Assembly (NCBI GenBank): GCA_963796285.1
Contig: CAWCKW010000012.1
Span: forward strand, 320,001-384,000
Direction of reading: 5' to 3'
DNA from: Nitrospirota bacterium
Lineage (GTDB): Bacteria > Nitrospirota > UBA9217
DNA length: 64,000 nt
Part shown: piece after piece, positions 7,449-62,100 of the stretch
Layout: the number at the start of each line of letters is the position of its first letter
Position numbering within the stretch: the first letter of the stretch is position 1
Translations under genes and position numbers: made by a program
Notes under the pieces: model-generated
The model's input: only the letters and a program-made list of their open reading frames with translations
What the model was told of the DNA's origin: nothing
Databases searched by the model: none

Positions 7449-7953
7449 ATGATGACTGAAAACTGGTATGCGCTCCGGGTAAGATCGCGTCATGAGTTCG
7501 TTACTTCCGAAGAGCTTACGCGGAAGGACATCGAGAATTTTCTCCCGTCCGTTTCAAGAATGCGTCAATGGAAAGATAGAAAAAAAACCGTGGATTTTCC
7601 GCTCTTTCCTGGATATGTATTCGTTCACCTTGATCCGCGTCCTGGAGCATTTTTGAATGTCTTGAAGACACGCGGGTCTGTGGGTTTCGTTTCGCTGGAG
7701 CCCGGGCATCCGACCTCCGTGTCACCGGCAGAGATCGCATCTCTCAGGGCAATGCTCATGAGCGGGGAGCAGCTCGATGTCTTCCCTGCATTTAAGGAAG
7801 GAACGGCTGTGCGGGTGAAGCATGGCCCGTTGCGCGGCACGGTCGGCATCCTGGCAAAGCGGGAAGGCCGCCAGATGTTCCTTATCAATATCGACATTCT
7901 CGGCAGGAGTGTCGGCTTGAAGATCTCGCGCCGAGGATGTTGAACTGGCATGA
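7449..7953 (+). CDS. UpxY/RfaH-family transcription antiterminator (NusG paralogue); frameshift near 7930
   Basis: 'WYALRVRSRHE', 'RQWKDRKKTVDFPLFPGYVFV', KOW 'GTAVRVKHGPLRG'. Confidence 0.9.
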
Positions 7954-8232
7954 TCTTGAAGAAATAATTGCCACGGATCAACGGATTGACGGAATTTTAA
8001 AGCCTGGATCAAATTCATGAGTCACTAATTTGGTGAATTTATTGAAACCAGCAATGCGATAGTTTTTTAGTCATTCGCGTGTTACTGGGAAGCGCTCAAT
8101 GCCGGTCATTTGCAGTTATCTGTTGTTATGAAGCCGATGCCTGCATGTCCTCAATATGATCGACATGCAGTGAGAAGGTACCGCTTATTTTTTACCCCCT
8201 TGGTTACTGACTGTAACTGAGAGGGCGAAGCA

Positions 8233-9818: not shown

Positions 9819-10964
9819 ATGAAAACCACATTGCGAAGAAAAAAGCCTGTAATCACTCCGCTGCGTTCCGACATGTTCTGTGATGACGATTCTGTTTGCT
9901 ACATAGAAGAGTTCTTTGTCGAGTTTCTTGTATTCGAGCGAAGACGGAGCGAACGCTCAGGCAGGCCATTTCTGGTGATGACGCTCGATTTTACCGGTCT
10001 CCGCGACTTTGAGAGCAAACGGGAATCCGTCATGTGGACAATGAAGACACTGTCCGTGCTTACACGCGATACCGATATCAAGGGATGGTACAAAGATTCG
10101 GCAGTTCTGGGAGTGATCTTTACCGAAATGAACAGCCTTGAAACGGAAACTCTACAGAAAAAAATATACGCCAGCCTGCACGCCAGCCTGACGGATGAAC
10201 AGCTCAATGTCATCCGGATATCCTTTCATAGATTTCCCGACGAAGGAAAGCCAAGTAAGCCCGGTAACCCGGTAGACTTCACGTTCTATCCCGATTATCC
10301 CAAACATGAACGATCCAGAAAAAACGCCCTCAAGATGAAGCGGATCATTGATGTTGTCGGCAGTATTACGGGTATCGTGATATTTTCTCCTTTCTTCGTC
10401 CTGATCCCGATTTTGATCAAGCTCACCTCACGGGGTGCGGTGTTTTTCCGTCAGGAAAGAGTCGGACAATATGAGAAGAATTTCATGTTCTTGAAATTCA
10501 GGAGCATGTACTCCGGCAATAATGAGGCTGTGCACAAAGAGTTTGTCCACAACTTAATTCTTAAAAAGACACCATGCGACGCGGGTGATAATGGTTCCGG
10601 AAAGAAAGTGTTCAAGATCACGAACGACAAGAGGGTGACCCCGATAGGGAAAATCCTTCGAAAGACGAGTTTGGACGAATTGCCTCAGTTTATTAACGTG
10701 CTGAGAGGAGAAATGTCATTGGCGGGTCCGAGGCCGCCCATTCCGTATGAACTCGAGAAGTATGATAGTTGGCATCGTCGCCGCGTTTTAGAGATCAAGC
10801 CCGGAATAACCGGATTGTGGCAGGTCATGGGGCGGAGTTCGACATCCTTCGACGAAATGGTGCGCCTCGATCTCCAATACGCGACGAATTGGTCGCTTTG
10901 GCTGGACATTAAAATCCTGCTGAAGACACCATGGGCCATTTTTGGAGGGAAGGGTGCGTATTAA
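9819..10964 (+). CDS. Priming phosphoglycosyl (sugar) transferase with a degenerate GGDEF-like N-terminal domain
   Basis: Bac_transf motifs 'KRIIDVV', 'FFRQERVG', 'LKFRSM', 'RKTSLDELPQFINVLRGEMSLAGPRP', 'KPGITGLWQV'. Confidence 0.93.
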   Translation: MKTTLRRKKPVITPLRSDMFCDDDSVCYIEEFFVEFLVFERRRSERSGRPFLVMTLDFTGLRDFESKRESVMWTMKTLSVLTRDTDIKGWYKDSAVLGVIFTEMNSLETETLQKKIYASLHASLTDEQLNVIRISFHRFPDEGKPSKPGNPVDFTFYPDYPKHERSRKNALKMKRIIDVVGSITGIVIFSPFFVLIPILIKLTSRGAVFFRQERVGQYEKNFMFLKFRSMYSGNNEAVHKEFVHNLILKKTPCDAGDNGSGKKVFKITNDKRVTPIGKILRKTSLDELPQFINVLRGEMSLAGPRPPIPYELEKYDSWHRRRVLEIKPGITGLWQVMGRSSTSFDEMVRLDLQYATNWSLWLDIKILLKTPWAIFGGKGAY

Positions 10965-11043
10965 TGAGCAGATGGAGTAGAGAGTTGAGAGTAGTGCTTT
11001 GCTCCATGCGCTATGCTCAATGTTTATCGATCAGGAGGAATAC

Positions 11044-12049
11044 ATGATCAATATCGGCATCATCGGATACGGCTACTGGGGACCGAATATCGTGCGGAAT
11101 TTCAGCGTACTTGAGGGGGCACGGGTCGCTTCAATATGCGACGGGAACCAGCAGGCCCTGAACAGGGCGCGGAAGTCGTACCCGAACTGCGCCGTAACGC
11201 AGGATTGCAACGACATCCTGAACTCGACGGAGATCGATGCCGTGGCAGTCATCACTCCGGTATCGACCCATTTTGAACTGGCCAAAAAGGCGCTCGAAAA
11301 CGGAAAACACGTGTTCGTGGAAAAACCCTTCACCGCAACGGCGGCGCAGGCGGAGAAATTGATCGCGCTGGCGGAACGGAAGAAGCTGACCATCATGGTG
11401 GACCATACCTTCCTGTTCACCGGCGCCGTGAGAAAAGATTAAGCAGCTCATAAAAGAACAAGCTCTGGGGGAGTCTTTACTATTACGATTCGGTCAGAGT
11501 TAACCTGGGCCTCTTCCAGCATGACGTGAACGTCATATGGGATCTTGCACCCCATGATTTTGCTGTCATGGACTACATCCTCGATGAAAAGCCCTTTGCC
11601 ATCGCAGCCTGCGGAAAGGCGCATGTGAATGAGATGGAGGATACTGCTTACGTCATCGTCCACTTTAACAATAACATGATCGCCCACTTTCAACGTCAAT
11701 TGGTTGTCCCCGGTCAAGGTAAGGACCACCCGCATCGGGGGAGAGAAGAAAATGCTCGTGTGGAACGACCTGGAGCCGGATGAAAAGATCAAGATCTACG
11801 ATAAGGGAGTCGAAGTTAAGAGCACAGGAAGCGAAATACAAGATGCTTGTCAACTACCGATCGGGTGATATGTATGCACCGCGGGTTGAGCAGATCGAAG
11901 CTCTCAATGCAGAGACCGAGTATTTTGTGCATGTATAAACGCGAGTGAGAGGCCTGATCAATGATGGACATGCGGGCTTGCGTGTGGTGAAGATGCTAGA
12001 AGCCTGCAATCTTTCGATTAAGAAGAACGGTCGGGCGGTGACGGTATGA
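11044..12049 (+). CDS. Gfo/Idh/MocA NAD-dependent oxidoreductase (WbpB/WlbA-like), frameshifted
   Basis: 'IGIIGYGYWGPNIVRNF', 'GKHVFVEKP', 'MVDHTFLF', 'NVIWDLAPHD'. Confidence 0.88.
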
Positions 12050-12558
12050 AATATGTCTCCATCGCGGAGGATGTCCGGCTTGGAAAGGATGTCAAGCTTG
12101 CCAATTTTGTCAACCTGTACGGGTGTACTATTGACGACAATACCAAGATCGGGACTTTCGTCGAGGTCCAGAAGAACGCCACGATCGGGAAGAATTGCAA
12201 GATCCAGAGCCATACGTTCATCTGCGAAGGTGTGACCATCGAAGACGAAGTATTCGTCGGCCATGGGGTGACGTTCATTAATGACAAATATCCGCGCGCC
12301 ACAAGCGGCAATGGCGGCCTGCAAACCGAGGCGGACTGGAAGGTGGTCCCGACGATCGTAAAAAAAGGGGCCTCCGTCGGGTCCGGGTCCACGATCCTCT
12401 GCAATATCACTATAGGGGAGAAGGCCATTGTGGGGTCAGGCAGTGTTGTAACAAAAGACGTCCCGGCGAATACGATCGTTGCGGGAAATCCGGCAAGGAT
12501 TGTGAGGAAAATCGATAGTCAGGAGCCAGAAGTCGGGAGTCAGAAGTTGAAAAAATGA
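12046..12558 (+). CDS. Hexapeptide-repeat N-acetyltransferase (WbpD/WlbB-like)
   Basis: 'IGKNCKIQSHTFICEGVTIEDEVFVGHGVTFINDKYPRA', 'VTKDVPANTIVAGNPA'. Confidence 0.9.
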   Translation: MKYVSIAEDVRLGKDVKLANFVNLYGCTIDDNTKIGTFVEVQKNATIGKNCKIQSHTFICEGVTIEDEVFVGHGVTFINDKYPRATSGNGGLQTEADWKVVPTIVKKGASVGSGSTILCNITIGEKAIVGSGSVVTKDVPANTIVAGNPARIVRKIDSQEPEVGSQKLKK

Positions 12559-12561
12559 TCA

Positions 12562-13040
12562 TCGCGCGAAGGCGCAAAGACGCAAAGAAAGATTTGAAAA
12601 AATAATATGGATGAAAATCAGATATCGAAGGTTGCTAGTGGATTGCTGCTATAAAATTCATACAGGACTTGGGCCGGGATTATTAGAATCAGTCTATCTT
12701 GAAATTCTTTTATACGAGTTGAAGAAAGCGGGGCTAAACTGCGAGAAAGAGGTTGGTATCCCGGTGCACTATGATGAGATTAAGCTTGATCTTGGTTTTC
12801 GGGCTGATTTGATCGTGGAAAATTTAGTGATTATCGAACTGAAAGCCGTAGAAAAGTTTATGCCTGTTCATAAGAAGCAATTAACGACTTATCTCAGATT
12901 AACGCGAATGAAGCTTGGTTTGCTTGTGAATTTTAACGCCAATCTTATCAAAGATGGGATTGAGCGGGTTGTTAATGGATTATAGAACTTAACGATTCCC
13001 GGCTTATGTTGTTCTTTGTGCTCTTTGCGGCTTCGCGCGA
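12562..13040. repeat. ~28-bp imperfect inverted repeat framing the GxxExxY gene
   Basis: Left tcgcgcgaaggcgcaaagacgcaaagaa (12562-12589); right ttctttgtgctctttgcggcttcgcgcga (13012-13040); 2 mismatches and 1 gap. Confidence 0.85.
12607..12985 (+). CDS. GxxExxY protein (PD-(D/E)XK nuclease-like fold)
   Basis: 'IHTGLGPGLLESVY', 'FRADLIVENLVIIELKA', 'QLTTYL', 'GLLVNF'. ATG 12607 (MDENQIS) with a 1-bp shift. Confidence 0.93.
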
Positions 13041-13107
13041 GACAGGCCTAAGAAATTACGCTTTACCTGTCTCTCTACCTTCTACCTTCACCTAAGGAGA
13101 ATCAACT

Positions 13108-14298
13108 ATGCCGATGAAAAGATCCCTTTCCTCGATCTCATAACCCCTCATCGCGAGATGGAGGAGGAGCTTATTGCAATAGTCCGGAAATCTCTTCAGA
13201 CCGCAGGTTTTATCGGCGGCCCGATGGTAGAGAATTTCGAACGTGAGTTCGCGGCATATTGTGACACAACGTACTGCGTTGGCCTGGGGAGCGGTACCGA
13301 TGCGCTGCGCTTCGCGCTTATTGCTCTTGGAGTCGGGCAGGGTGATATGGTTATAACGGTTGCCAATACCTTTATCGCCACAACCGAGGCGATTTCCCAG
13401 GCAAATGCATCGATTGCTTTTGTAGATATTGATGAACGGACATATACCATGGACCCTGAAAAGCTCAGGGAATTCATCGAAACACAATGCACACAGGGGC
13501 CTGAAGGACGACCAATCCACCAAAAAACCGGCAAGACTGTGGCGGCAATAATTCCCGTTCATTTGTACGGCCAAATGGCTGATATGGACGCCATCATGGA
13601 AATAGCCCGAAAGCACAAACTAAAAGTGGTAGAGGATGCGTGCCAGGCGCATGGAGCAAAGTATTTCTCCAGGAAGGAAAATCGCTGGAGAACTGCCGGA
13701 TCCATCGGCCATGCTGCGGCATTCAGCTTTTATCCGGGGAAGAACCTTGGGGCATGCGGCGAAGCGGGAGCTGCTACGACGAATGATGAAGCAGTTGCTA
13801 AAGACCATCAAAATGATAAGGGATCATGGTCAGGCCCAGAAGTACTATCATGATATCGAAGGATACAATGGAAGGCTTGACGCGATCCAGGCCGGGATCC
13901 TCTCCGCCAAACTAAAGCGTCTGCCGGCCTGGACCGAGGCACGCCAAAAAGCGGCGGCCCGCTATACTGATATGTTAAAAGGAGTTGCAAACAGTGCAAC
14001 ACCTTATGAAGGCGAATGGTCAAAGGCGGTATATCACCTCTATGTGATCCGGACCGGCAAGCGGGACGAACTGAAAAAATATCTCGCGGGAGAAAATATT
14101 GATACCGGCCTTCATTATCCTGTCCCTCTTCATCAACAAAAAGCATATGCAACCATGGATTTTCATAATGGCAGTCTTGCGGTCTCTGAACGGGTGGCGG
14201 GGGAGATCATTTCTTTGCCAATGTTCCCGGGGTTGACGGAAGAACAGCAAAAAAGAGTAGTCAGCTCGATAAAGGGATTCATGGAGCATAGCGTATAG
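13108..14298 (+). CDS. DegT/DnrJ/EryC1/StrS aminotransferase (WbpE/WlbC-like), frameshifts near 13120 and 13800
   Basis: '[11 protein letters not shown]', '[12 protein letters not shown]', '[11 protein letters not shown]', '[16 protein letters not shown]', '[11 protein letters not shown]', 'ISLPMFP'. Confidence 0.92.
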
Positions 14299-14429
14299 CG
14301 CAGAGAGCAGGGAGCGGTGCGCAGAGACGCTATGCGCTGCGCTTTTGCGTTTTGCTCCGGAATGCAATGTCCAAATTCAGATTTCAGGGTTTGAGGATAT
14401 GGCAACTGACGATCGAGATTGCGCATGAA

Positions 14430-20877: not shown

Positions 20878-22367
20878 ATGACAGACAATCTTCAACAGAA
20901 AACACCTGGCGCCATCTCATGGAGTTTTGTCGAGGCCCTGGTGCGCAGCGGGGCGTGCAATTCGTCATCGGGATCGTTTTGGCGCGGCTGCTGTTCCCTG
21001 AGCAGTTCGGTCTGATCGGGATGCTGACGATCTTCATGGCTGTATCTCAATCATTCCTTGACAGCGGATTCGGCGCTGCCTTGATCCAGAAACGGGAAAT
21101 AACGCAAACCGACATCTGTTCCGATATTTTATTTTAATATACTGGTGGGGTTGGCAGCCGCGGGCCTGTTGTGTCTCGCCGCCCCCTGGATAGCCGCTTT
21201 TTATAAACAGCCTGTCCTGACCCCCCTGACGCGGGCGCTGTCGCTGACCATCGTGATAAATTCCTTCGGCCTGATTCAGAGCACCATCCTCACCAGACAG
21301 ATCAACTTCAAGACCCAGACCAAGGTAAGCCTGATCGCCGGCGCATTGTCGGGTATCATCGGTATTACTCTGGCCGCCGTGGATTCGGCGTATGGAGCCT
21401 GGTTATTCAGCAGATATCCAGCTCGCTTTTTTCAGACAGTTTGTCTCTGGTCTATATCAGTTCCTGGAGGCCGATCCTGATCTTCAGCTTCAACTCCCTG
21501 CGGGAAATGTTCGGTTTCGGTTCGCGCATGCTGTTTTCAGGATTGCTGAATCAGATCTTTGACAATATCTATCTCGTGGTCATCGGCAGGCTGTTTTCCG
21601 CCGCTGATCTCGGATTATTTTACACGCGCCAAGACCATGAATGATCTTCCAACGCAAACGTTGTCGGGAATGGTGGGACGGGTCACGTTTCCTGTGTTCT
21701 CCACGATCCAGGATGATCCGGCCCGACTGAAAAGAGGATTGAAAAAGGCCTTGACCATGCTGGTTCTGGTGAATTTCCCCATGATGATCGGCCTGGCGAT
21801 CATTGCCCGTCCCCTGGTGCTGGTAATGTTGACGGAAAAGTGGGCACCCTCTGTTCCTTATTTGCAGTTGCTCTGTGTGGCCGGTTTGCTGTTTCCGCTG
21901 CAACTGATGAACTTGAATGTGCTGCAGGCCCTGGGCCGGTCCGACCTTTTTTTCCGCCTGGAGATCATCAAAAAAGTCATGATCGCGATCAATATTGCCA
22001 TAACCTGGCGATGGGGCATATCCGCGATGATTTACGGCATGATCGTCAATTCGATCATCGCGTATTATTTGAACAGTTATTACAACGGCAGTTCTGATCA
22101 GTTACCCGCATCAAAGAGCAGGTGCTTGACCTGTTCCCTTACCTCATCGCGGCCTCACTGATGGGCATTGCGGTATATGCCGCCGGGTTGCTGCAGTTCT
22201 CCCACCAATGGTCCATGCTTTTAGTGCAAATTGCCACGGGAATAGTTGTTTATGTTCTCCTTTGCCGCGTATTTCGCTTGAAGGCTTTTATGGAAATATG
22301 GCAAGCGGGTTGGAATAAGATAAAGACATCAGGATTCAAGGTGTCGAGGGTTCAAGGATTCAAGTGA
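20878..22367 (+). CDS. wzx: Wzx flippase (WzxC-like lipopolysaccharide biosynthesis protein), frameshifted
   Basis: 'IVLARLLFPEQFGLIGM', 'DSGFGAALIQ', 'VGRVTFPVFSTIQDD', 'NVLQALGRSDL'. Confidence 0.88.
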
Positions 22368-22513
22368 GATGCTCGAGCATTCGGACCCCTTGAACCTGCA
22401 ACTCTCCCGTAGCTGGCTACGGGGCCACCTATTAGGTCCCTCCCCCTTGAAAACCGAGAGATAATGTTTTTATATTTAAAATAATAGAAGTCAGAGTACA
22501 TAGAGGTGAGTGC

Positions 22514-31232: not shown

Positions 31233-31648
31233 TAGCCAAGGACTTTAAGGAGTTCATCCAACTGTCCGGCATGACGCACGTTCGGACATCGCCCTTCTAC
31301 CCGCAGTCGAACGGCAAACTGGAGCGATTCCACAAAACGCTCAAAGGAGAATGCATCCGTCCGAAGACGCCGCTTTCAATTGACGACGCCCGGTGGTTTG
31401 TGGTAGAGGACATCGAACATTACAATACCGTCCGGCTTCACAGCGAGACCGGCTATATCACGCCGGCGGACAAACTGAACGGCAGGGGCCAAGAGATTTT
31501 CAAAGAACGGGATCGAAAACTTGAGGCCGCCCGGGAACAGCGCCGCCTCAAGAGGCTGCAGGTAAATCAAAGAAGTGATAATCCCGGGCTATTCGGATAC
31601 CATACAACCCAACCGGCTCTATAGTCCATTTCAGACTGGGGCAAAACA
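31233..31648 (+). mobile_element. IS3-family transposase 3' remnant with right end
   Basis: 'HVRTSPFYPQSNGKLERFHKTLK', 'YNTVRLHSETGYITP'; ends gtccatttcagactggggcaaaaca, an IS3-like right terminus. Confidence 0.85.
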
Positions 31649-35389: not shown

Positions 35390-36731
35390 AGGTTCAATGA
35401 CGTTACCAAGAAACTTGCCGAGGTCTTTTCCGTTGACGTCTCGAAGCAGCGTTTCGACTCGGTCCATATCTTTTCCAACATGCGCCATTTGGGCCGGATC
35501 GGCCTGTTCGTCAAGACCATCAAGAAGTTCCTCGTAAACCTCAAACGCCATCACAAAGACCTCTACGAAGCTTTGGACAAGGTCCTCTCCGACCGGTACA
35601 TGACCAAGCAGGGAGAAGCCGTCTTCTCGATGGTCAAGCCTTCGGAATCGACGAAGACACTTGCAAGCTTGGCTGAGGACGTTTTCACCCTTGTGGAACG
35701 TTTCAGGGGAAACGAGCCGGTCGTCACCATGACCAGCTATCAGTTCCTTGTCCGGCTGCTTAAGGAACAATGCATCCTGGAGCGTGTTGATACGCATACA
35801 ACCCAGGTCTCGGTCAAAGCGAACAAAGACGTACCTTCTGACTCTTTGCAGAATCCTTCCGACCCTGATGCCGGGTATAACGGCTATAAGGGCAAAGGCT
35901 ACCAGGTGCAGGTCGCCGAAAGCTACAGCACTTCCGAGGATGCCGACACCCTGAATTTGATCACCGGCGTGATCGTCGAACCTGCACACAAGCGCGATGC
36001 TCATGCCCTGATTCCGCTCATCGAAACCACCGCAGAGCTTGGCCTGAAGCCGAAGGAAGCCCTGGCCGATACCCTTTACGGCGGTGACGAGAACTGCCGG
36101 AAGGCGGAAGCTCTGGGTGTTGAAATCGTTTCGCCGGTCAAGGGCGCAGGACCCAAGGCCTCTTCCACTCACGGAATTCACCATGAACAGCGAGAACGAG
36201 GTAACCTCCTGCCCGGAGGGATGTGCGCCGGAAAACACCGAAAGCCAAGATGACAATCACATCGCGTTCTTCTCAAAGAGAACCTGTCGCGGCTGTTCCC
36301 GAAAGAAAACATGTCCGACGAAGCCCGGCAAAAAAGGACGCTCTCTCCGGTACGACGATAAAGCGATCCGTCTGGCCCGGCGGCGTGTGTACGAAGAATC
36401 TCCCGAGTTTCGGGACCGATACCGATTCCGTGCGGGAATCGAAGGGACCATGTCTCAGCTTGATCGATTGACTGGAATCAAGAACCTTCGCGTCCGGGGC
36501 ATGTCCGCAGTGAGCTTCGCTGCTTACTTAAAAGCGGCGGGGATCAACATCATCCGGGCGGCGGCGTATCCAAAACCGGGAAACCGAAGGGGAATCGGCT
36601 GTCACAGCCGTTTTCCTTGCTATCTTGTGCTGTCAAAGAGCGATTGCAGCGCGTTTCAGATGCGATCAGGTGTATTGCGAGCGACTTACTGGCGTCTTGA
36701 TATGTGTTTCGCGGCTCTTTATGCCGCGTGA
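35390..36731 (+). mobile_element. DDE transposase (IS1182/IS5-related), 5'-truncated, frameshift near 36165
   Basis: 'QRFDSVHIFSNM', 'SLQNPSDPDAGY', 'KGKGYQVQVAE', 'LADTLYG', Cys cluster 'CPEG..CRGC..CP', 'YRFRAGIEGTMS', 'LRVRG'. Confidence 0.85.
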
Positions 36732-47092: not shown

Positions 47093-47293
47093 TGGTTTGT
47101 TTACTAACTAAGCGATCAAATTTTCTCAAAATGGAAACAAAATTCAGCCACGAAAACTCAAAGACTCAAAGAAAACACCATGAATTATGGACTTAATACG
47201 TCACTAACCCCTGTAAGATTTCTTTGTACCTGCGTGTCTTCGTGCTAAATTTAGCTTCCGGCTTGTCCCGGTTAGGGGTTGGGGGGGAGTGAA

Positions 47294-47629: not shown

Positions 47630-47815
47630 TTCATGTGATGCAAAGAATGATGAATTCGTAAAAAATTCAAGATTTGCCGCAAGATGCACAAAAACACAAA
47701 GGTAATGTCTACAAGACTGAAATTTTATCTGAGCCCTTTGTGACTTATGTGGCTAAAAATGACTTTTTACGAGATTATCATGAATACACGTATGGAGTAA
47801 ACGGAGGTTATTTGA

Positions 47816-51542: not shown

Positions 51543-51765
51543 AACAACCACGGGGTAACTACAGGGAAGAAGACATTTGGCAGGATTTGGCAGGTCTTAA
51601 TCCCGGCATTTATATTGAAAAATATCTCACTACCCGGAAGGAAACGGTAAAGGAAATCAGTAGCATAAATTGAATTCAAGACTTGAATTATTTCTTTTCT
51701 CATTCTGCGGACATATATTATGGTTATAATTAAATTTCCTCTACGAAGGCGGGCATAGATATATT

Positions 51766-55853: not shown

Positions 55854-56118
55854 GGAGCTACCCCCCGTTTTAGTGACACTTGCAATTGGAGATTTTGACC
55901 GAACTTTCATATTTTGCTTTCCAGTTGTAATAAGTGGCGTCACTGAACCCGTACTTGCGGCAGAGGTCCGGGATCTTTATCCCTGCATCTGCCTCTTTAA
56001 GAATCTTTACGATCTGTTCTTCCGAGTACTTGCCTTGCTTCATCTTGTGCCTCCTTTTCGAGTGCTATAATTATGTCACACTCTAATCGGAAATGGCACT
56101 ATTTTCGGGGGCAGGTCC
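55854..56118 (-). mobile_element. Internally deleted IS3-family (IS407-group-like) element retaining both ends and the orfA 5' part
   Basis: Minus-strand ORF 56043-55870 'MKQGKYSEEQIVKILKEADAGIKIPDLCRKYGFSDATYYNWKAKY'; ends ggagctaccccccgttttagtgaca and (reverse complement) ggacctgcccccgaaaatagtgcca. Confidence 0.82.
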
Positions 56119-58665: not shown

Positions 58666-59047
58666 TTTCTTGCTTGCGCATGTTTAAGAAAAGAGATGCT
58701 TATAAGCGGGCAATTTTGAATGTGGGCGGACTTTATTCCGTAATGGTTAGATGATTTAAACGCTAGGTGGTAATATTAGGTTCATTCGTAATAAAGTTGA
58801 AAAGCAACTACGGACTTCTGTCTCGCGCAAAGCCACCAAGCGCGCAAGGAGAAACAACGATAGGAGCTTGAGAAAAGCCACTGGCATTGGATAAGAAATT
58901 CATGTATCAAGTTCTTGTATATCTTTTTGCTTTACGGCCATCCGTCCTTTTAAAGTTAATCCTTAAAAGTGTTGGATTATTTTACATAGTGGACAATAAT
59001 AGCTACGGGGAAGCTTATATTATTATTGATATCAATAGATTGTAGTA

Positions 59048-59063: not shown

Positions 59064-59191
59064 TAAAAATATGAGTACCATTGTTAATCCACATCTTTGA
59101 GCGAAAATGATTTTTTTCTAAAGTGATGTTGTTGTCTGTCCATGGATGGCAATAACGCAATTTCAACTGAAATACGAAAGATCCTAATATT

Positions 59192-62100
59192 ATGATAAAA
59201 ACTAAGATAGAACATAAATACAGGTTGATTTTCCTAGTTGCAATCGCAGTCATTTTTACGGAACTTTGTATCGTGTCGTTACAGGACGGTGCGGTTTGGG
59301 CCGCCTCGACCTCTAAACCCGCAAAACCCATTAAAGGTCCTCACGTCCTTAATGAGTTGCTCGTAAAGTTTAATATAGGCGTGGATTCTAATCAGGCAAA
59401 GGCCGATTTGTTAAAATACGGTTTTACGAGCATCAAAAGATATAAGCAAGTTTCAAACCTGTATCACGTTCGTATACCCTCGGTCCTTACGGCCGATGCC
59501 GCCATCGATCTCTTGCAGTCCGATCCAGATGTTGAGTACGCCGAGCCTAATTACCTCATGGAGGGCGATTCTGCCTGCAGCAGCTCGCCATGCACGCCGA
59601 ATGATACATTATATTCTGACCCCGGCAATTGGGGATTTGCCAATATCGGTGCGCCGCAGGCCTGGGCGGTTACAACAGGTGATAGCAGTTTGGTCGTGGC
59701 AGTGATAGATAGCGGGATTGATTATAACCATCCTGATCTGGCCAATAATAAATGGACCAACCAGGCTGAAGCATCAGGAACTCCTGCCTTTTATGGATAT
59801 AATGCTGTTGCGGATATCGGTTCTGGAGGTCTTTGCCCACCACCGGCCAGCAGTTTTCCTATCGATGATGATACTTCGGTACTGGGCCATGGAACTCGTC
59901 TTGCCGGGATTATAGGTGCGGTTGGAAATAACAGCACCGGTATTGCTGGGGTGAATTGGAATGTCAAACTGATGCCGATTAAGGTTCGTTGCGAACCCGA
60001 TCGGCAATCAAATCTCGCTCTTTTTATTGCCGGAATGGACTATATGCTGACCGAGAAGCAAGCTGGTGTCAATATCCGTGTGGCCAATATGAGTGTCGGC
60101 GTCTCAACCTATAGCCAATCTCTTCAGAATATACTCGACGCGGCTCGTGATGCTGGCATTCTCTTAGTAGCCTCTGCCGGTAATTCGAGCACTAACCTTG
60201 ATTTAGATTCGACCGACTTCCATTCGAATGAGTATGACAACGTGCTCTTTGTCGCCGCGACCGACCAGACCAATGCGCTTGCCGGATTTTCGAACTACGG
60301 TCAGGTCGATATTCACCTCGCCGCTCCGGGTGTCGGGATCCTCAGCACCGTCCGAAGCGTGTACAATCCCATGTATCAACCCGATGATGGAACATCCTAC
60401 TCGACCCCCATGGTTACGGGTGTCGCGGCGCTCCTGGCTTCGTCCGATCCATCCCTCACGGTTTCAGAGCTCAAGGCGCGCATCATGAGCTCCACAGTTC
60501 AGACCAACGCGCTTATGAGCAAGGTGGCCGCGGGCGGGCGTCTGAATGCCGCAGGTATTTTCAACGCGCCGATTGCCGATCTATTGCCAATGGGCTATCA
60601 ATTGGCGCGCCTCCAGGTCGGCGATAAATATCATCTGGACAGACCCTTTGTCGTTGCGTCCATCCCGCAGGGCCTGAATGGTCTCTGGTGGGTGCGCACA
60701 AAGAACAACGACAAGACTAATACATCGCCGAACTATATCCAGATTGGACTCAATCAAGCGGCGACAGTATACGTTGCGTACGATTCGCGCGTAACGGCCG
60801 ACGAGCTTCCGGACTGGTTGCGGTCGGACCAGGGTTGGTTGGACACGGGGCTGTTTATTGGAACTTCCAATAACGGTACGCCCAGTTCGTTGCACCTGTA
60901 CTCAAAGACCTTCATTCCGGGAACGGCCGTACTTGGAGGGCCTCAGGCCGTTGGTTATAACGGGCCGGTGGGCAGTTCGGGTACTAATTATGTCGTGTTG
61001 ATCAATCTTTTATCAATTACGGCTCCAACCAATTTGAATGCAACAGATCTTCCATCTGACAATGGTGGAGCCATTCAGCTGACCTGGACACCTTCGGCGA
61101 CCCCGGGGATCGTGGCGCAGCGGGTGTACCGTGCGACGACAAGCGGCGGGCCGTATACCTTGATATCGAGCTTTGCCGACAATACGACGAACGCTTACAT
61201 TGATAGTGGACTGACCAACGGGACGACCTATTATTATGTGGTTCGTTCTTCTGACGGCACACAGGAGTCGGCGAACAGCAACGAGTCATCGGCCGCACCG
61301 GTAGACAATCTTGCACCGGCGGCGCCGACCGCGCTGGCTGCGGTGGACAATCCGGGAGACAATGGCGGGGCGATCCGCTTGACCTGGAACCCCTCGGTCA
61401 GCAGTGATGTCATGTCACAAGGGATTTACCGTAGCACCACCCCGGGCGGGCCGTACACGATCATAACCAGTATTGCCAATAATACGACCAAAACCTACAC
61501 GGATAGCGGCCTGACGAACGGGATGACCTATTATTATATCGCGCGGTCTTATGACGGCACTCAGTCGTCCGCAAACAGCAATGAGGCCAGCGCCGCACCG
61601 GTGGACAATCTGGCCCCGGCGCCGCCGACATCTCTATCGGCGGTGGATAATCCGGCGGATAACGGCGGGGCGATCCGTCTGACCTGGACGCCCTCGGTAA
61701 GCCCGGATGTGACTGCGCAGCGGGTGTATCGTGCGACGACCGCGGGCGGGCCGTACACGATCATAACCAGTTTTGCCAATAATACGACCAACACCTACAC
61801 GGATAGCGGACTGACGAACGGGAAGACCTATTATTATATCGTACAGTCTTTTGACGGCACTCAATCATCCGCAAACAGCAACGAGTCGTCGGCTGTTCCC
61901 GTTGTAAATATCGCTCTGGCGGCGCCGACCGCATTAGTTGCGGCGGACAATCCGGGGGACAATGGCGGGGCGATTCGTCTAAGCTGGGGGCCATCGGGGA
62001 GTCGGACCGCAGTGGCGCAGCGGTTCTACCGTGCGACGACCAGTGGCGGGCCGTATTTCTTGGTGATGAGCTTTGCAGACAATACGACGAACAGCTATAC

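Follow-up and report, generated by a model that had tools for sequence, protein, structure and literature searches.

The GxxExxY gene at positions 12607-12985 of the window (the whole stretch of 64,000 nucleotides that was analysed) raises the question of why a small gene with a nuclease fold should stand between two sugar-pathway genes, enclosed by an inverted repeat, and whether gene and repeats together form a mobile unit. The segment in question comprises 480 bp (12562-13040) and consists of a left arm, the GxxExxY gene and a right arm. The left arm (12562-12589, + strand) is built from three CGCAAAG-type units, contains the 8-nt units CGCAAAGA x3 and begins 3 nt past the stop codon of the upstream acetyltransferase gene; the right arm (13012-13040, - strand) is its inverted copy. 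The core arms (12562-12580 and 13022-13040) are complementary at 18 of 19 positions, and a gapped alignment joins the full arms through 26 Watson-Crick pairs and one G.U, interrupted by a single G.G mismatch and a single bulge. A chance inverted repeat was rejected, as the flank score of 41 lies above the maximum of 24 among 100 dinucleotide shuffles, and the RNA fold of 12500-13110, in which the arms pair and enclose the whole gene, is better than in all of 20 shuffles (z -3.5; 0/20 equally good). The repeat of about 28 bp that the sequence-only reading had described as tightly framing the gene is therefore confirmed, with arms of 28-29 nt.

The gene, which lies on the + strand and carries the motif of the family, matches TIGR04256 with 139.8 bits (cut-off 35) and PF13366 (PDDEXK_3) with 134 (cut-off 22). 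Its true start is the ATG at 12607; the sequenced open frame spans 12611-12985, and alignment with 11 relatives reveals an extra base near 12636 that none of them has. This base is likely a read error, since many genes of the window are frameshifted: single-base frameshifts are dense across the cluster (e.g. 10999-12030, 13108-14298 and 20919-22367), as is typical of uncorrected long-read assembly. A sigma-70 promoter belonging to the gene was rejected, prediction across 12300-13250 having returned 0 promoter-like sites.

Two host genes, both outside the element, adjoin it: a hexapeptide-repeat acetyltransferase gene upstream (12046-12558, + strand) and a DegT/DnrJ/EryC1/StrS aminotransferase gene downstream (13108-14298, + strand), the latter frameshifted here. 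The earlier description has the neighbours as WbpD-like and WbpE-like; these Wbp names are putative labels, and no NCBIfam model scored above its cut-off against either gene. The setting is a long cluster of exopolysaccharide genes, at whose head stands a gene with a NusG domain (7449-7943); a processive antiterminator of this kind could aid tolerance of hairpin insertions. Heptamer-type tracts of another repeat class flank the cassette on the outside (12517-12547 and 13074-13093), the first of which lies within the acetyltransferase ORF and extends its 3' end. This arrangement suggests an older, nested insertion at the same junction.

Strong inverted repeats were also found around GxxExxY genes elsewhere. 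We collected 28 gene copies from eight loci of plasmid records, 17 loci of a genome collection and the window, of which 27 were scored, one (L023) being excluded from scoring as its contig ends 29 nt downstream. An upstream/downstream score of at least 30, taken as a strong flanking repeat, was reached by 19 of the 27 copies but by only 6 of the 244 remaining ORFs in these loci (Fisher p 4e-18), in a comparison whose rows are partly non-independent, three pairs sharing a site, and whose control ORFs come from a crude caller. The concern raised along with the earlier reading, that GxxExxY genes might generally lack such repeats, is thereby refuted. Eight of the 27 copies score below 30, and five of the 19 owe their score to adjoining hairpin arrays rather than to a simple arm-gene-arm arrangement. 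By inspection of the flanks, 14 copies show a clear arm-gene-arm layout and three the same layout in weak form (L006, L009 and the third copy in L022). Gene-less hairpins or arrays adjoin the gene in five (L001, L018, L019, L020 and L024), direct repeats of one arm type lie on both sides in three (L005, L007 and L008), one has a hairpin upstream only (L021), and one is a remnant in which the left arm is fused to mid-gene (L025). About a third of copies depart from the simple layout, either having gene-less hairpins next to the gene or carrying one arm in direct repeat. Among 120 close homologues, over-long gene calls often start or end in peptides that, by eye, read as translated arms.

Five of the six high-scoring control genes were inspected and comprised two Y1 tyrosine-transposase genes, one of them scoring under its Pfam cut-off, one 23S_rRNA_IVP gene, one MFS gene and one EVE gene. 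The other clearly framed genes are of the known REPtron/TIRtron and IVP kinds, with different arms. The Y1 tyrosine-transposase genes (L013 14891-15469 and L020 3739-4248) possess inverted repeats of their own, and the IVP gene, which encodes a four-helix bundle, lies outside rRNA and has heptamer arms (L010 1967-2338, - strand).

Arms of the CGCAAAG type were present at all 15 genome-scan hits with at least 54% identity, over six or more host groups. The three GxxExxY copies in one Micavibrio locus each have a separate arm type, two of them being 44% and 50% identical to the middle one; given this identity and an arm type for each, they look like separate arrivals. Judged from pairwise identities, arm type follows protein similarity more than host. 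The link between arm type and protein distance is not strict, as L003 (46% identity) also has a CGCAAAG-like arm. Much longer arms of a different type (about 60 nt, 58 matching) are arrayed around a distant GxxExxY gene in L024 (9750-9920 and 10340-10540). A known RNA family was rejected for the arms, Rfam having given no match to those in the window, L015, L019, L022 and L024; its three matches overall were two tRNAs and one c-di-GMP riboswitch.

Arms were also found apart from the gene. The related solo arm that had been pointed out in the window (58821-58851, + strand, CGCAAAG type) is real: with a matrix built from other loci, leaving out the window, it scores 25.8 at 58824, and shuffles yield 0.3 hits of at least 20 per 64 kb. 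No convincing partner was found for it (fold z -0.9), and no GxxExxY remnant was seen behind it among the ORFs inspected by eye. Both the solo arm and 358 nt of AT-rich DNA lie within a separate 32-nt inverted repeat (84%; 58771-58802 and 59161-59192), which terminates at the start of a subtilase gene. Two degenerate gene-less arm pairs, both weak, occupy gene junctions at 47146-47244 (matrix 17.2 and 14.2, fold z -1.9) and at 47675-47756 (matrix 15.3, fold z -1.6), neither with an assigned strand. Further gene-less short-unit tracts or hairpins occur at cluster junctions (7965-7995, 10964-11020, 14283-14355, 22328-22405 and 51575-51605), those at 14283 and 22328 with fold z of -2.1 and -2.3; these tracts and hairpins resemble the heptamer arms that frame the IVP gene of L010. 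The window also holds IS remnants at 31271-31624, 36084-36731 and about 55880-56110 (integrase core rve_3, DDE_Tnp_1_6 and an IS3-like fragment, the last identified by eye).

Outside the window, gene-less hairpins adjoin GxxExxY copies with fold z of -2.9 to -6.0. In L022 (7968-8101), a gene-less arm copy, whose loop carries another small nested hairpin, immediately precedes a filled cassette; some 20 nt from the 3' end of fabA are duplicated there. L018 (5660-6030) shows a tandem duplication of a gene-less hairpin and the first codons of the GxxExxY gene, which is either genuine or an assembly artefact.

The abundance of gene-less hairpins and solo arms, both beside and away from the gene, is what would be expected if the arms were REP-like sequences moved by another enzyme, either a RAYT/TIRYT or a host recombination pathway, with GxxExxY riding between them as a passenger. 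Y1 tyrosine-transposase genes do occur in two of the same loci, and the GxxExxY protein is, on its sequence, a predicted nuclease only. Yet the Y1 and IVP genes of these loci have their own, different arms, a change of GxxExxY lineage is a change of arm type, and no gene other than GxxExxY was found between CGCAAAG arms in the 17 genome-scan loci. We therefore regard a passenger gene as quite unlikely.

The positions of the copies point to arrival of gene and arms together. Proteins 81-82% identical to that of the window occupy two other contexts (L009 and L010), the former a wzy/epimerase junction. Further copies lie between fabD and fabG (L003), radA and an FAD protein gene (L004), ade and a mannose-1-phosphate guanylyltransferase gene (L002), SDR and FAA hydrolase genes (L011), and an aromatic amino-acid lyase gene (hutH) and rmuC (L012 and L014), as well as after a gatB-like gene (L017) and after an aminotransferase gene (L018 and L019); the three Micavibrio copies are at the sucA/sucB, fabA/fabB and fabB/fabI junctions. 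Gene names such as fabD, sucA and rmuC are in part our reading of the Pfam domains of these host genes. The junctions are unrelated, spread over many phyla, and the neighbours have no common function. There is no preference for sugar pathways or long operons as such, housekeeping junctions being hit equally often. The earlier proposal of insertion at gene junctions of long operons consequently holds for gene junctions, many and unrelated, but not for long operons as such, and the sugar-pathway setting, which it had named, is incidental.

The copies are co-oriented with the upstream gene in 26 of 28 cases, the exceptions being L008, which is ambiguous, and the remnant L025. The first arm often begins no more than about 6 nt from the stop codon of the host gene (window, L003, L004, L011, L012, L014, L020, L022 and L023), a placement that could be explained by selection for an intact downstream ribosome-binding site.

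Several of these junctions are empty in other organisms. The fabD/fabG junction lacks gene and arms in another Sphingomonas and in Methylobacterium (L028 and L031); the radA/FAD protein junction is empty in Parabacteroides, with a 13-nt gap (L029), and holds other cargo, a DUF1847 gene, in Phocaeicola (L030). An empty junction of the wbpD-wbpE type, which the sequence-only reading had proposed to look for in relatives, exists in a distant one: the planctomycete Isosphaeraceae EP7 (L032) has the order oxidoreductase-acetyltransferase-aminotransferase with an arm-less gap of 23 nt, its three genes being 45%, 59% and 42% identical to those of the window. Since the empty junctions are without arms, the arms arrive with the gene. 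A fixed member of the sugar pathway was rejected on account of L032 and of two reordered clusters from which the GxxExxY gene is absent (L026 and L027). Taken together, these three kinds of empty junction dispose of the objection that the gene might be syntenically fixed with no empty sites.

Inspection by eye of the window, L003 and L004 showed no target-site duplication, in a comparison with empty sites of other species or genera, which are too distant for breakpoints to be placed, and no fixed target sequence was seen among the sites. A site can also persist: it is kept between relatives in three pairs (L012/L014, L015/L016 and L018/L019), from which it follows that movement is slow, and in the homologues P0010, P0014 and P0024 the upstream peptide resembles the flank in the window. 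Within the 20-kb loci no near-identical copies in one genome, and hence no sign of a recent burst, were seen. A phage-borne origin was rejected, as none of 50,697 phage records matched; among 72,556 plasmid records there were just 8 matches, all typed as non-mobilizable. Given this absence and rarity, no vehicle was seen. On this comparative sequence evidence, the arm-gene-arm unit is very probably mobile. The earlier notion of a minimal non-DDE unit residing at gene junctions finds support in the enrichment of inverted repeats, the unrelated sites and the empty, arm-less junctions.

The arms themselves carry traces of how they may be maintained. L015 and L016 hold near-identical cassettes at one site, and L015 alone has a 23-nt insertion in each arm; the insertions are at mirror positions, complementary save for one G.U, and their sequence is absent elsewhere in the 32 loci. 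As two independent mirrored insertions are implausible, we infer that one arm was copied from the other in L015. Across ten CGCAAAG-type cassettes, 88.6% of 210 cells pair. Two-sided stem changes occur in 14 cells against 7.3 +/- 2.1 in shuffled data (0/500 shuffles), with controls that are inflated by relatedness and a structure taken from the window; the number of pairs with a two-sided change, six, is not exceptional (36/500 shuffles). Eleven of 21 stem pairs are invariant, and the unit sequences are conserved while the spacers drift. Such a pattern is expected of binding sites and suggests recognition of the units by a protein.

Transition mismatches are G.U-compatible more often on the sense strand than on the opposite one (19 against 6, p 0.015), counted at 17 hand-windowed sites from which one of each same-site pair and copies without an enclosing repeat were omitted. 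This bias would be expected if the unit were an RNA-level intervening sequence. In that case the arms would act in the RNA alone, where a stem that RNase III may cut renders the insertion harmless, and the nuclease would spread the cassette by cutting empty alleles with loose specificity, in the manner of a homing endonuclease. The co-orientation of 26 of the 28 copies fits such an element, as does the layout of the 444-nt 23S intervening sequence (IVS) with its 28-bp stem, one mismatch and one bulge (PMC4990558). The sense-strand bias may nevertheless be mutational, and transcription-associated C-to-T change or pairing in single-stranded DNA would yield the same outcome. In addition, the mirrored insertion in L015 requires copying between arms at the DNA level, the conservation of the units far exceeds the needs of pairing, there is no sequence common to the target sites, and a terminator-like hairpin separates host gene and element in L019 and probably also in L018. 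We thus consider an RNA-level intervening sequence unlikely.

GxxExxY proteins form a very large family, with 19,007 clusters at 50% identity matching at E values up to 0.001. PMC3424549 places PF13366 among families whose function is unknown and notes 'multiple transfers, mixed clades'. We folded an intact homologue from L009 (82% identical) with 106 sequences, obtaining a model with pLDDT 95 and pTM 0.88. Foldseek gave no match to this model at E 0.001; its best matches were an alkaline exonuclease (3syy, 1.1e-3), Cas4 proteins (4ic1 and 4r5q) and lambda exonuclease. In a wide structure search, the top matches were nearly all PD-(D/E)xK proteins with Z of 8.1-6 (best Z 8.1, rmsd 3.3, 99 aligned), values which are middling and agree with the Pfam assignment, and a sequence search of the PDB returned no match even at E 10. 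E30, D70, E80, K82, Q94 and Y98 are each at least 90% conserved in the 106 sequences, an E...D-ExK...QxxxY pattern that we take to represent the motif residues of RecB-family nucleases. The models accordingly describe GxxExxY as a predicted PD-(D/E)xK nuclease, similar to Cas4 and lambda exonuclease, and the earlier characterisation of the family as widespread and PD-(D/E)XK-like stands. PF13366 is the only Pfam family of the gene in the window: there was no HUH/Y1 domain (PF01797) in it and, by Pfam and structure searches, no DDE transposase in the element. In double-domain proteins, in which two GxxExxY domains stand in tandem (P0123, P0124 and other hits of 250-295 aa), the second domain seemingly lacks the D and the ExK, hinting that the single-domain protein may act as a dimer.

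A family of this size could also indicate that hosts have domesticated the gene, for anti-phage defence, for DNA repair or for adjusting operon expression through the hairpin, and that ordinary rearrangement accounts for its different positions. Retention of sites between relatives is consistent with this, as is the chromosomal location, which is shared with RAYTs according to 10.1101/2021.07.10.451892, and PADLOC returned similarities to PDC-S02 (E 3e-5) and Cas4 (E 1e-3). These PADLOC matches, however, are weak and reflect the shared fold, the neighbours have no function in common, the remnants and arrays look like the decay of a selfish element, and the arms would be left unexplained. A host function therefore appears very unlikely.

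We lean slightly towards reading the segment as a minimal, selfish, hairpin-ended element without a promoter, in which the nuclease would cut at the arms cognate to it and the unit would be copied by host repair; with similarly modest confidence we name the unit's own nuclease as the mover. The cutting, the substrate and the copying route are those that we infer as follows. The element lies in the narrow space that follows a host stop codon, is oriented with host transcription and would be expressed by read-through. On the sense strand, either in the transcript or in a displaced single DNA strand, the arms would pair and loop out the gene, which is probably why essential operons tolerate the element. 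The GxxExxY protein, a predicted Cas4/RecB-like nuclease, would recognise tandem units of its own arm type and make its cut in the stem or close to it. Repair synthesis and recombination by the host would next carry a copy of the segment to another junction, or into a gene-less hairpin already present, with one arm providing the template from which the other is made. Gene-less hairpins and solo arms would arise by internal deletion, as non-autonomous derivatives.

A broader proposal is offered tentatively and with somewhat less than even confidence. GxxExxY cassettes may be a very widespread and hitherto unrecognised class of mobile elements with a single enzyme, a PD-(D/E)xK nuclease of 125 aa, whose substrate would be the tandem-unit hairpin ends of the element itself, the ends regenerating each other and gene-less hairpins spreading in trans; together with IVP and Y1 cassettes they might represent a general gene-in-stem-loop strategy for operon junctions, of which the 23S IVS would be a special case that landed in rRNA. 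We know of no insertion element with a PD-(D/E)xK nuclease fold as its sole enzyme, and if the nuclease mobilises the cassette, this fold would be added to those that serve in that role. The tie between GxxExxY and its own arm sequences already provides a candidate substrate, and with it a direct assay, for a very large family. If the nuclease does mobilise the cassette, this would also explain a class of short hairpins that abound between genes in Desulfobacterota, Nitrospirota, Bacteroidota and others. It would further provide a way of testing how intervening sequences bounded by inverted repeats originate and move, which is an old question. A 480-bp unit that is tolerated within essential operons may also find use as a tool.

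With regard to known systems, no account of repeats around GxxExxY genes was found in the literature within reach of the search, subscription papers lying mostly beyond it. The accessible portions of PMC9881135 and 10.1101/2024.02.27.582315 do not describe GxxExxY cassettes, and that of PMC8934634 mentions GxxExxY as a domain call beside a reverse transcriptase. GxxExxY shares its predicted fold and the E...D-ExK...QxxxY residue pattern with Cas4, lambda exonuclease and RecB-AddA. It differs from these nucleases in being a stand-alone protein of 128 aa with no conserved four-cysteine cluster. A CRISPR-associated Cas4 identity was rejected on the E value of about 1e-3 in PADLOC, the lack of conserved cysteines and the lack of cas genes, there being no CRISPR/cas neighbours among those examined and no cas genes in the 72 scanned ORFs of the window.

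In IS200/IS605 elements, each end forms a hairpin of its own, which is bound by the HUH enzyme. The cassette and IS200/IS605 (see also PMC6006769) are alike in being tiny and non-DDE, with structured ends; target duplication is not apparent for IS200/IS605, and by eye none was seen at the three cassette sites inspected. In contrast to the separate hairpins of IS200/IS605, the ends of the cassette pair with each other, and the element contains no Y1 motif. The likeness to the 23S IVS (S23p/IVP) is closer in dimensions, both having about 440-480 nt, an ORF of about 125 aa in the loop of an imperfect terminal stem of about 28 bp, and a sporadic distribution (PMC4990558). Nevertheless, GxxExxY cassettes occupy mRNA gene junctions and encode a nuclease fold, whereas the IVS lies in rRNA helices and encodes a four-helix bundle; the window gave no Rfam match, and the flanks are protein genes.

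REPtrons, TIRtrons and the REPIN-RAYT system are described in PMC3733652, 10.1101/2021.07.10.451892 and PMC8049555. The REPtron/TIRtron and the cassette are both small nuclease genes framed by inverted repeats (PMC3733652, 10.1101/2021.07.10.451892), and REPIN-RAYT and GxxExxY both have gene-less doublets of the same repeat, which form hairpins of about 100 nt in extragenic space. RAYT and GxxExxY also share a repeat type specific to the enzyme lineage and a near-absence from plasmids and phages. The enzyme, by comparison, is of the PD-(D/E)xK fold in GxxExxY and of the HUH/Y1 type in RAYT/TIRYT, and the arms are tandem 7-nt units as opposed to the GTAG/CGTC-tagged palindromes of REP. Moreover, RAYTs are described as staying in one extragenic space, whereas close GxxExxY relatives are found in many unrelated junctions, with some same-site pairs. 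The GxxExxY cassette works like a REPtron or TIRtron with REPINs but is not a member of that class, because an HUH/Y1 enzyme is lacking and the position of the gene is not fixed. The arms around the GxxExxY gene are a real feature, that of a nuclease cassette framed by inverted repeats and with a different enzyme from that of REPtrons and TIRtrons.
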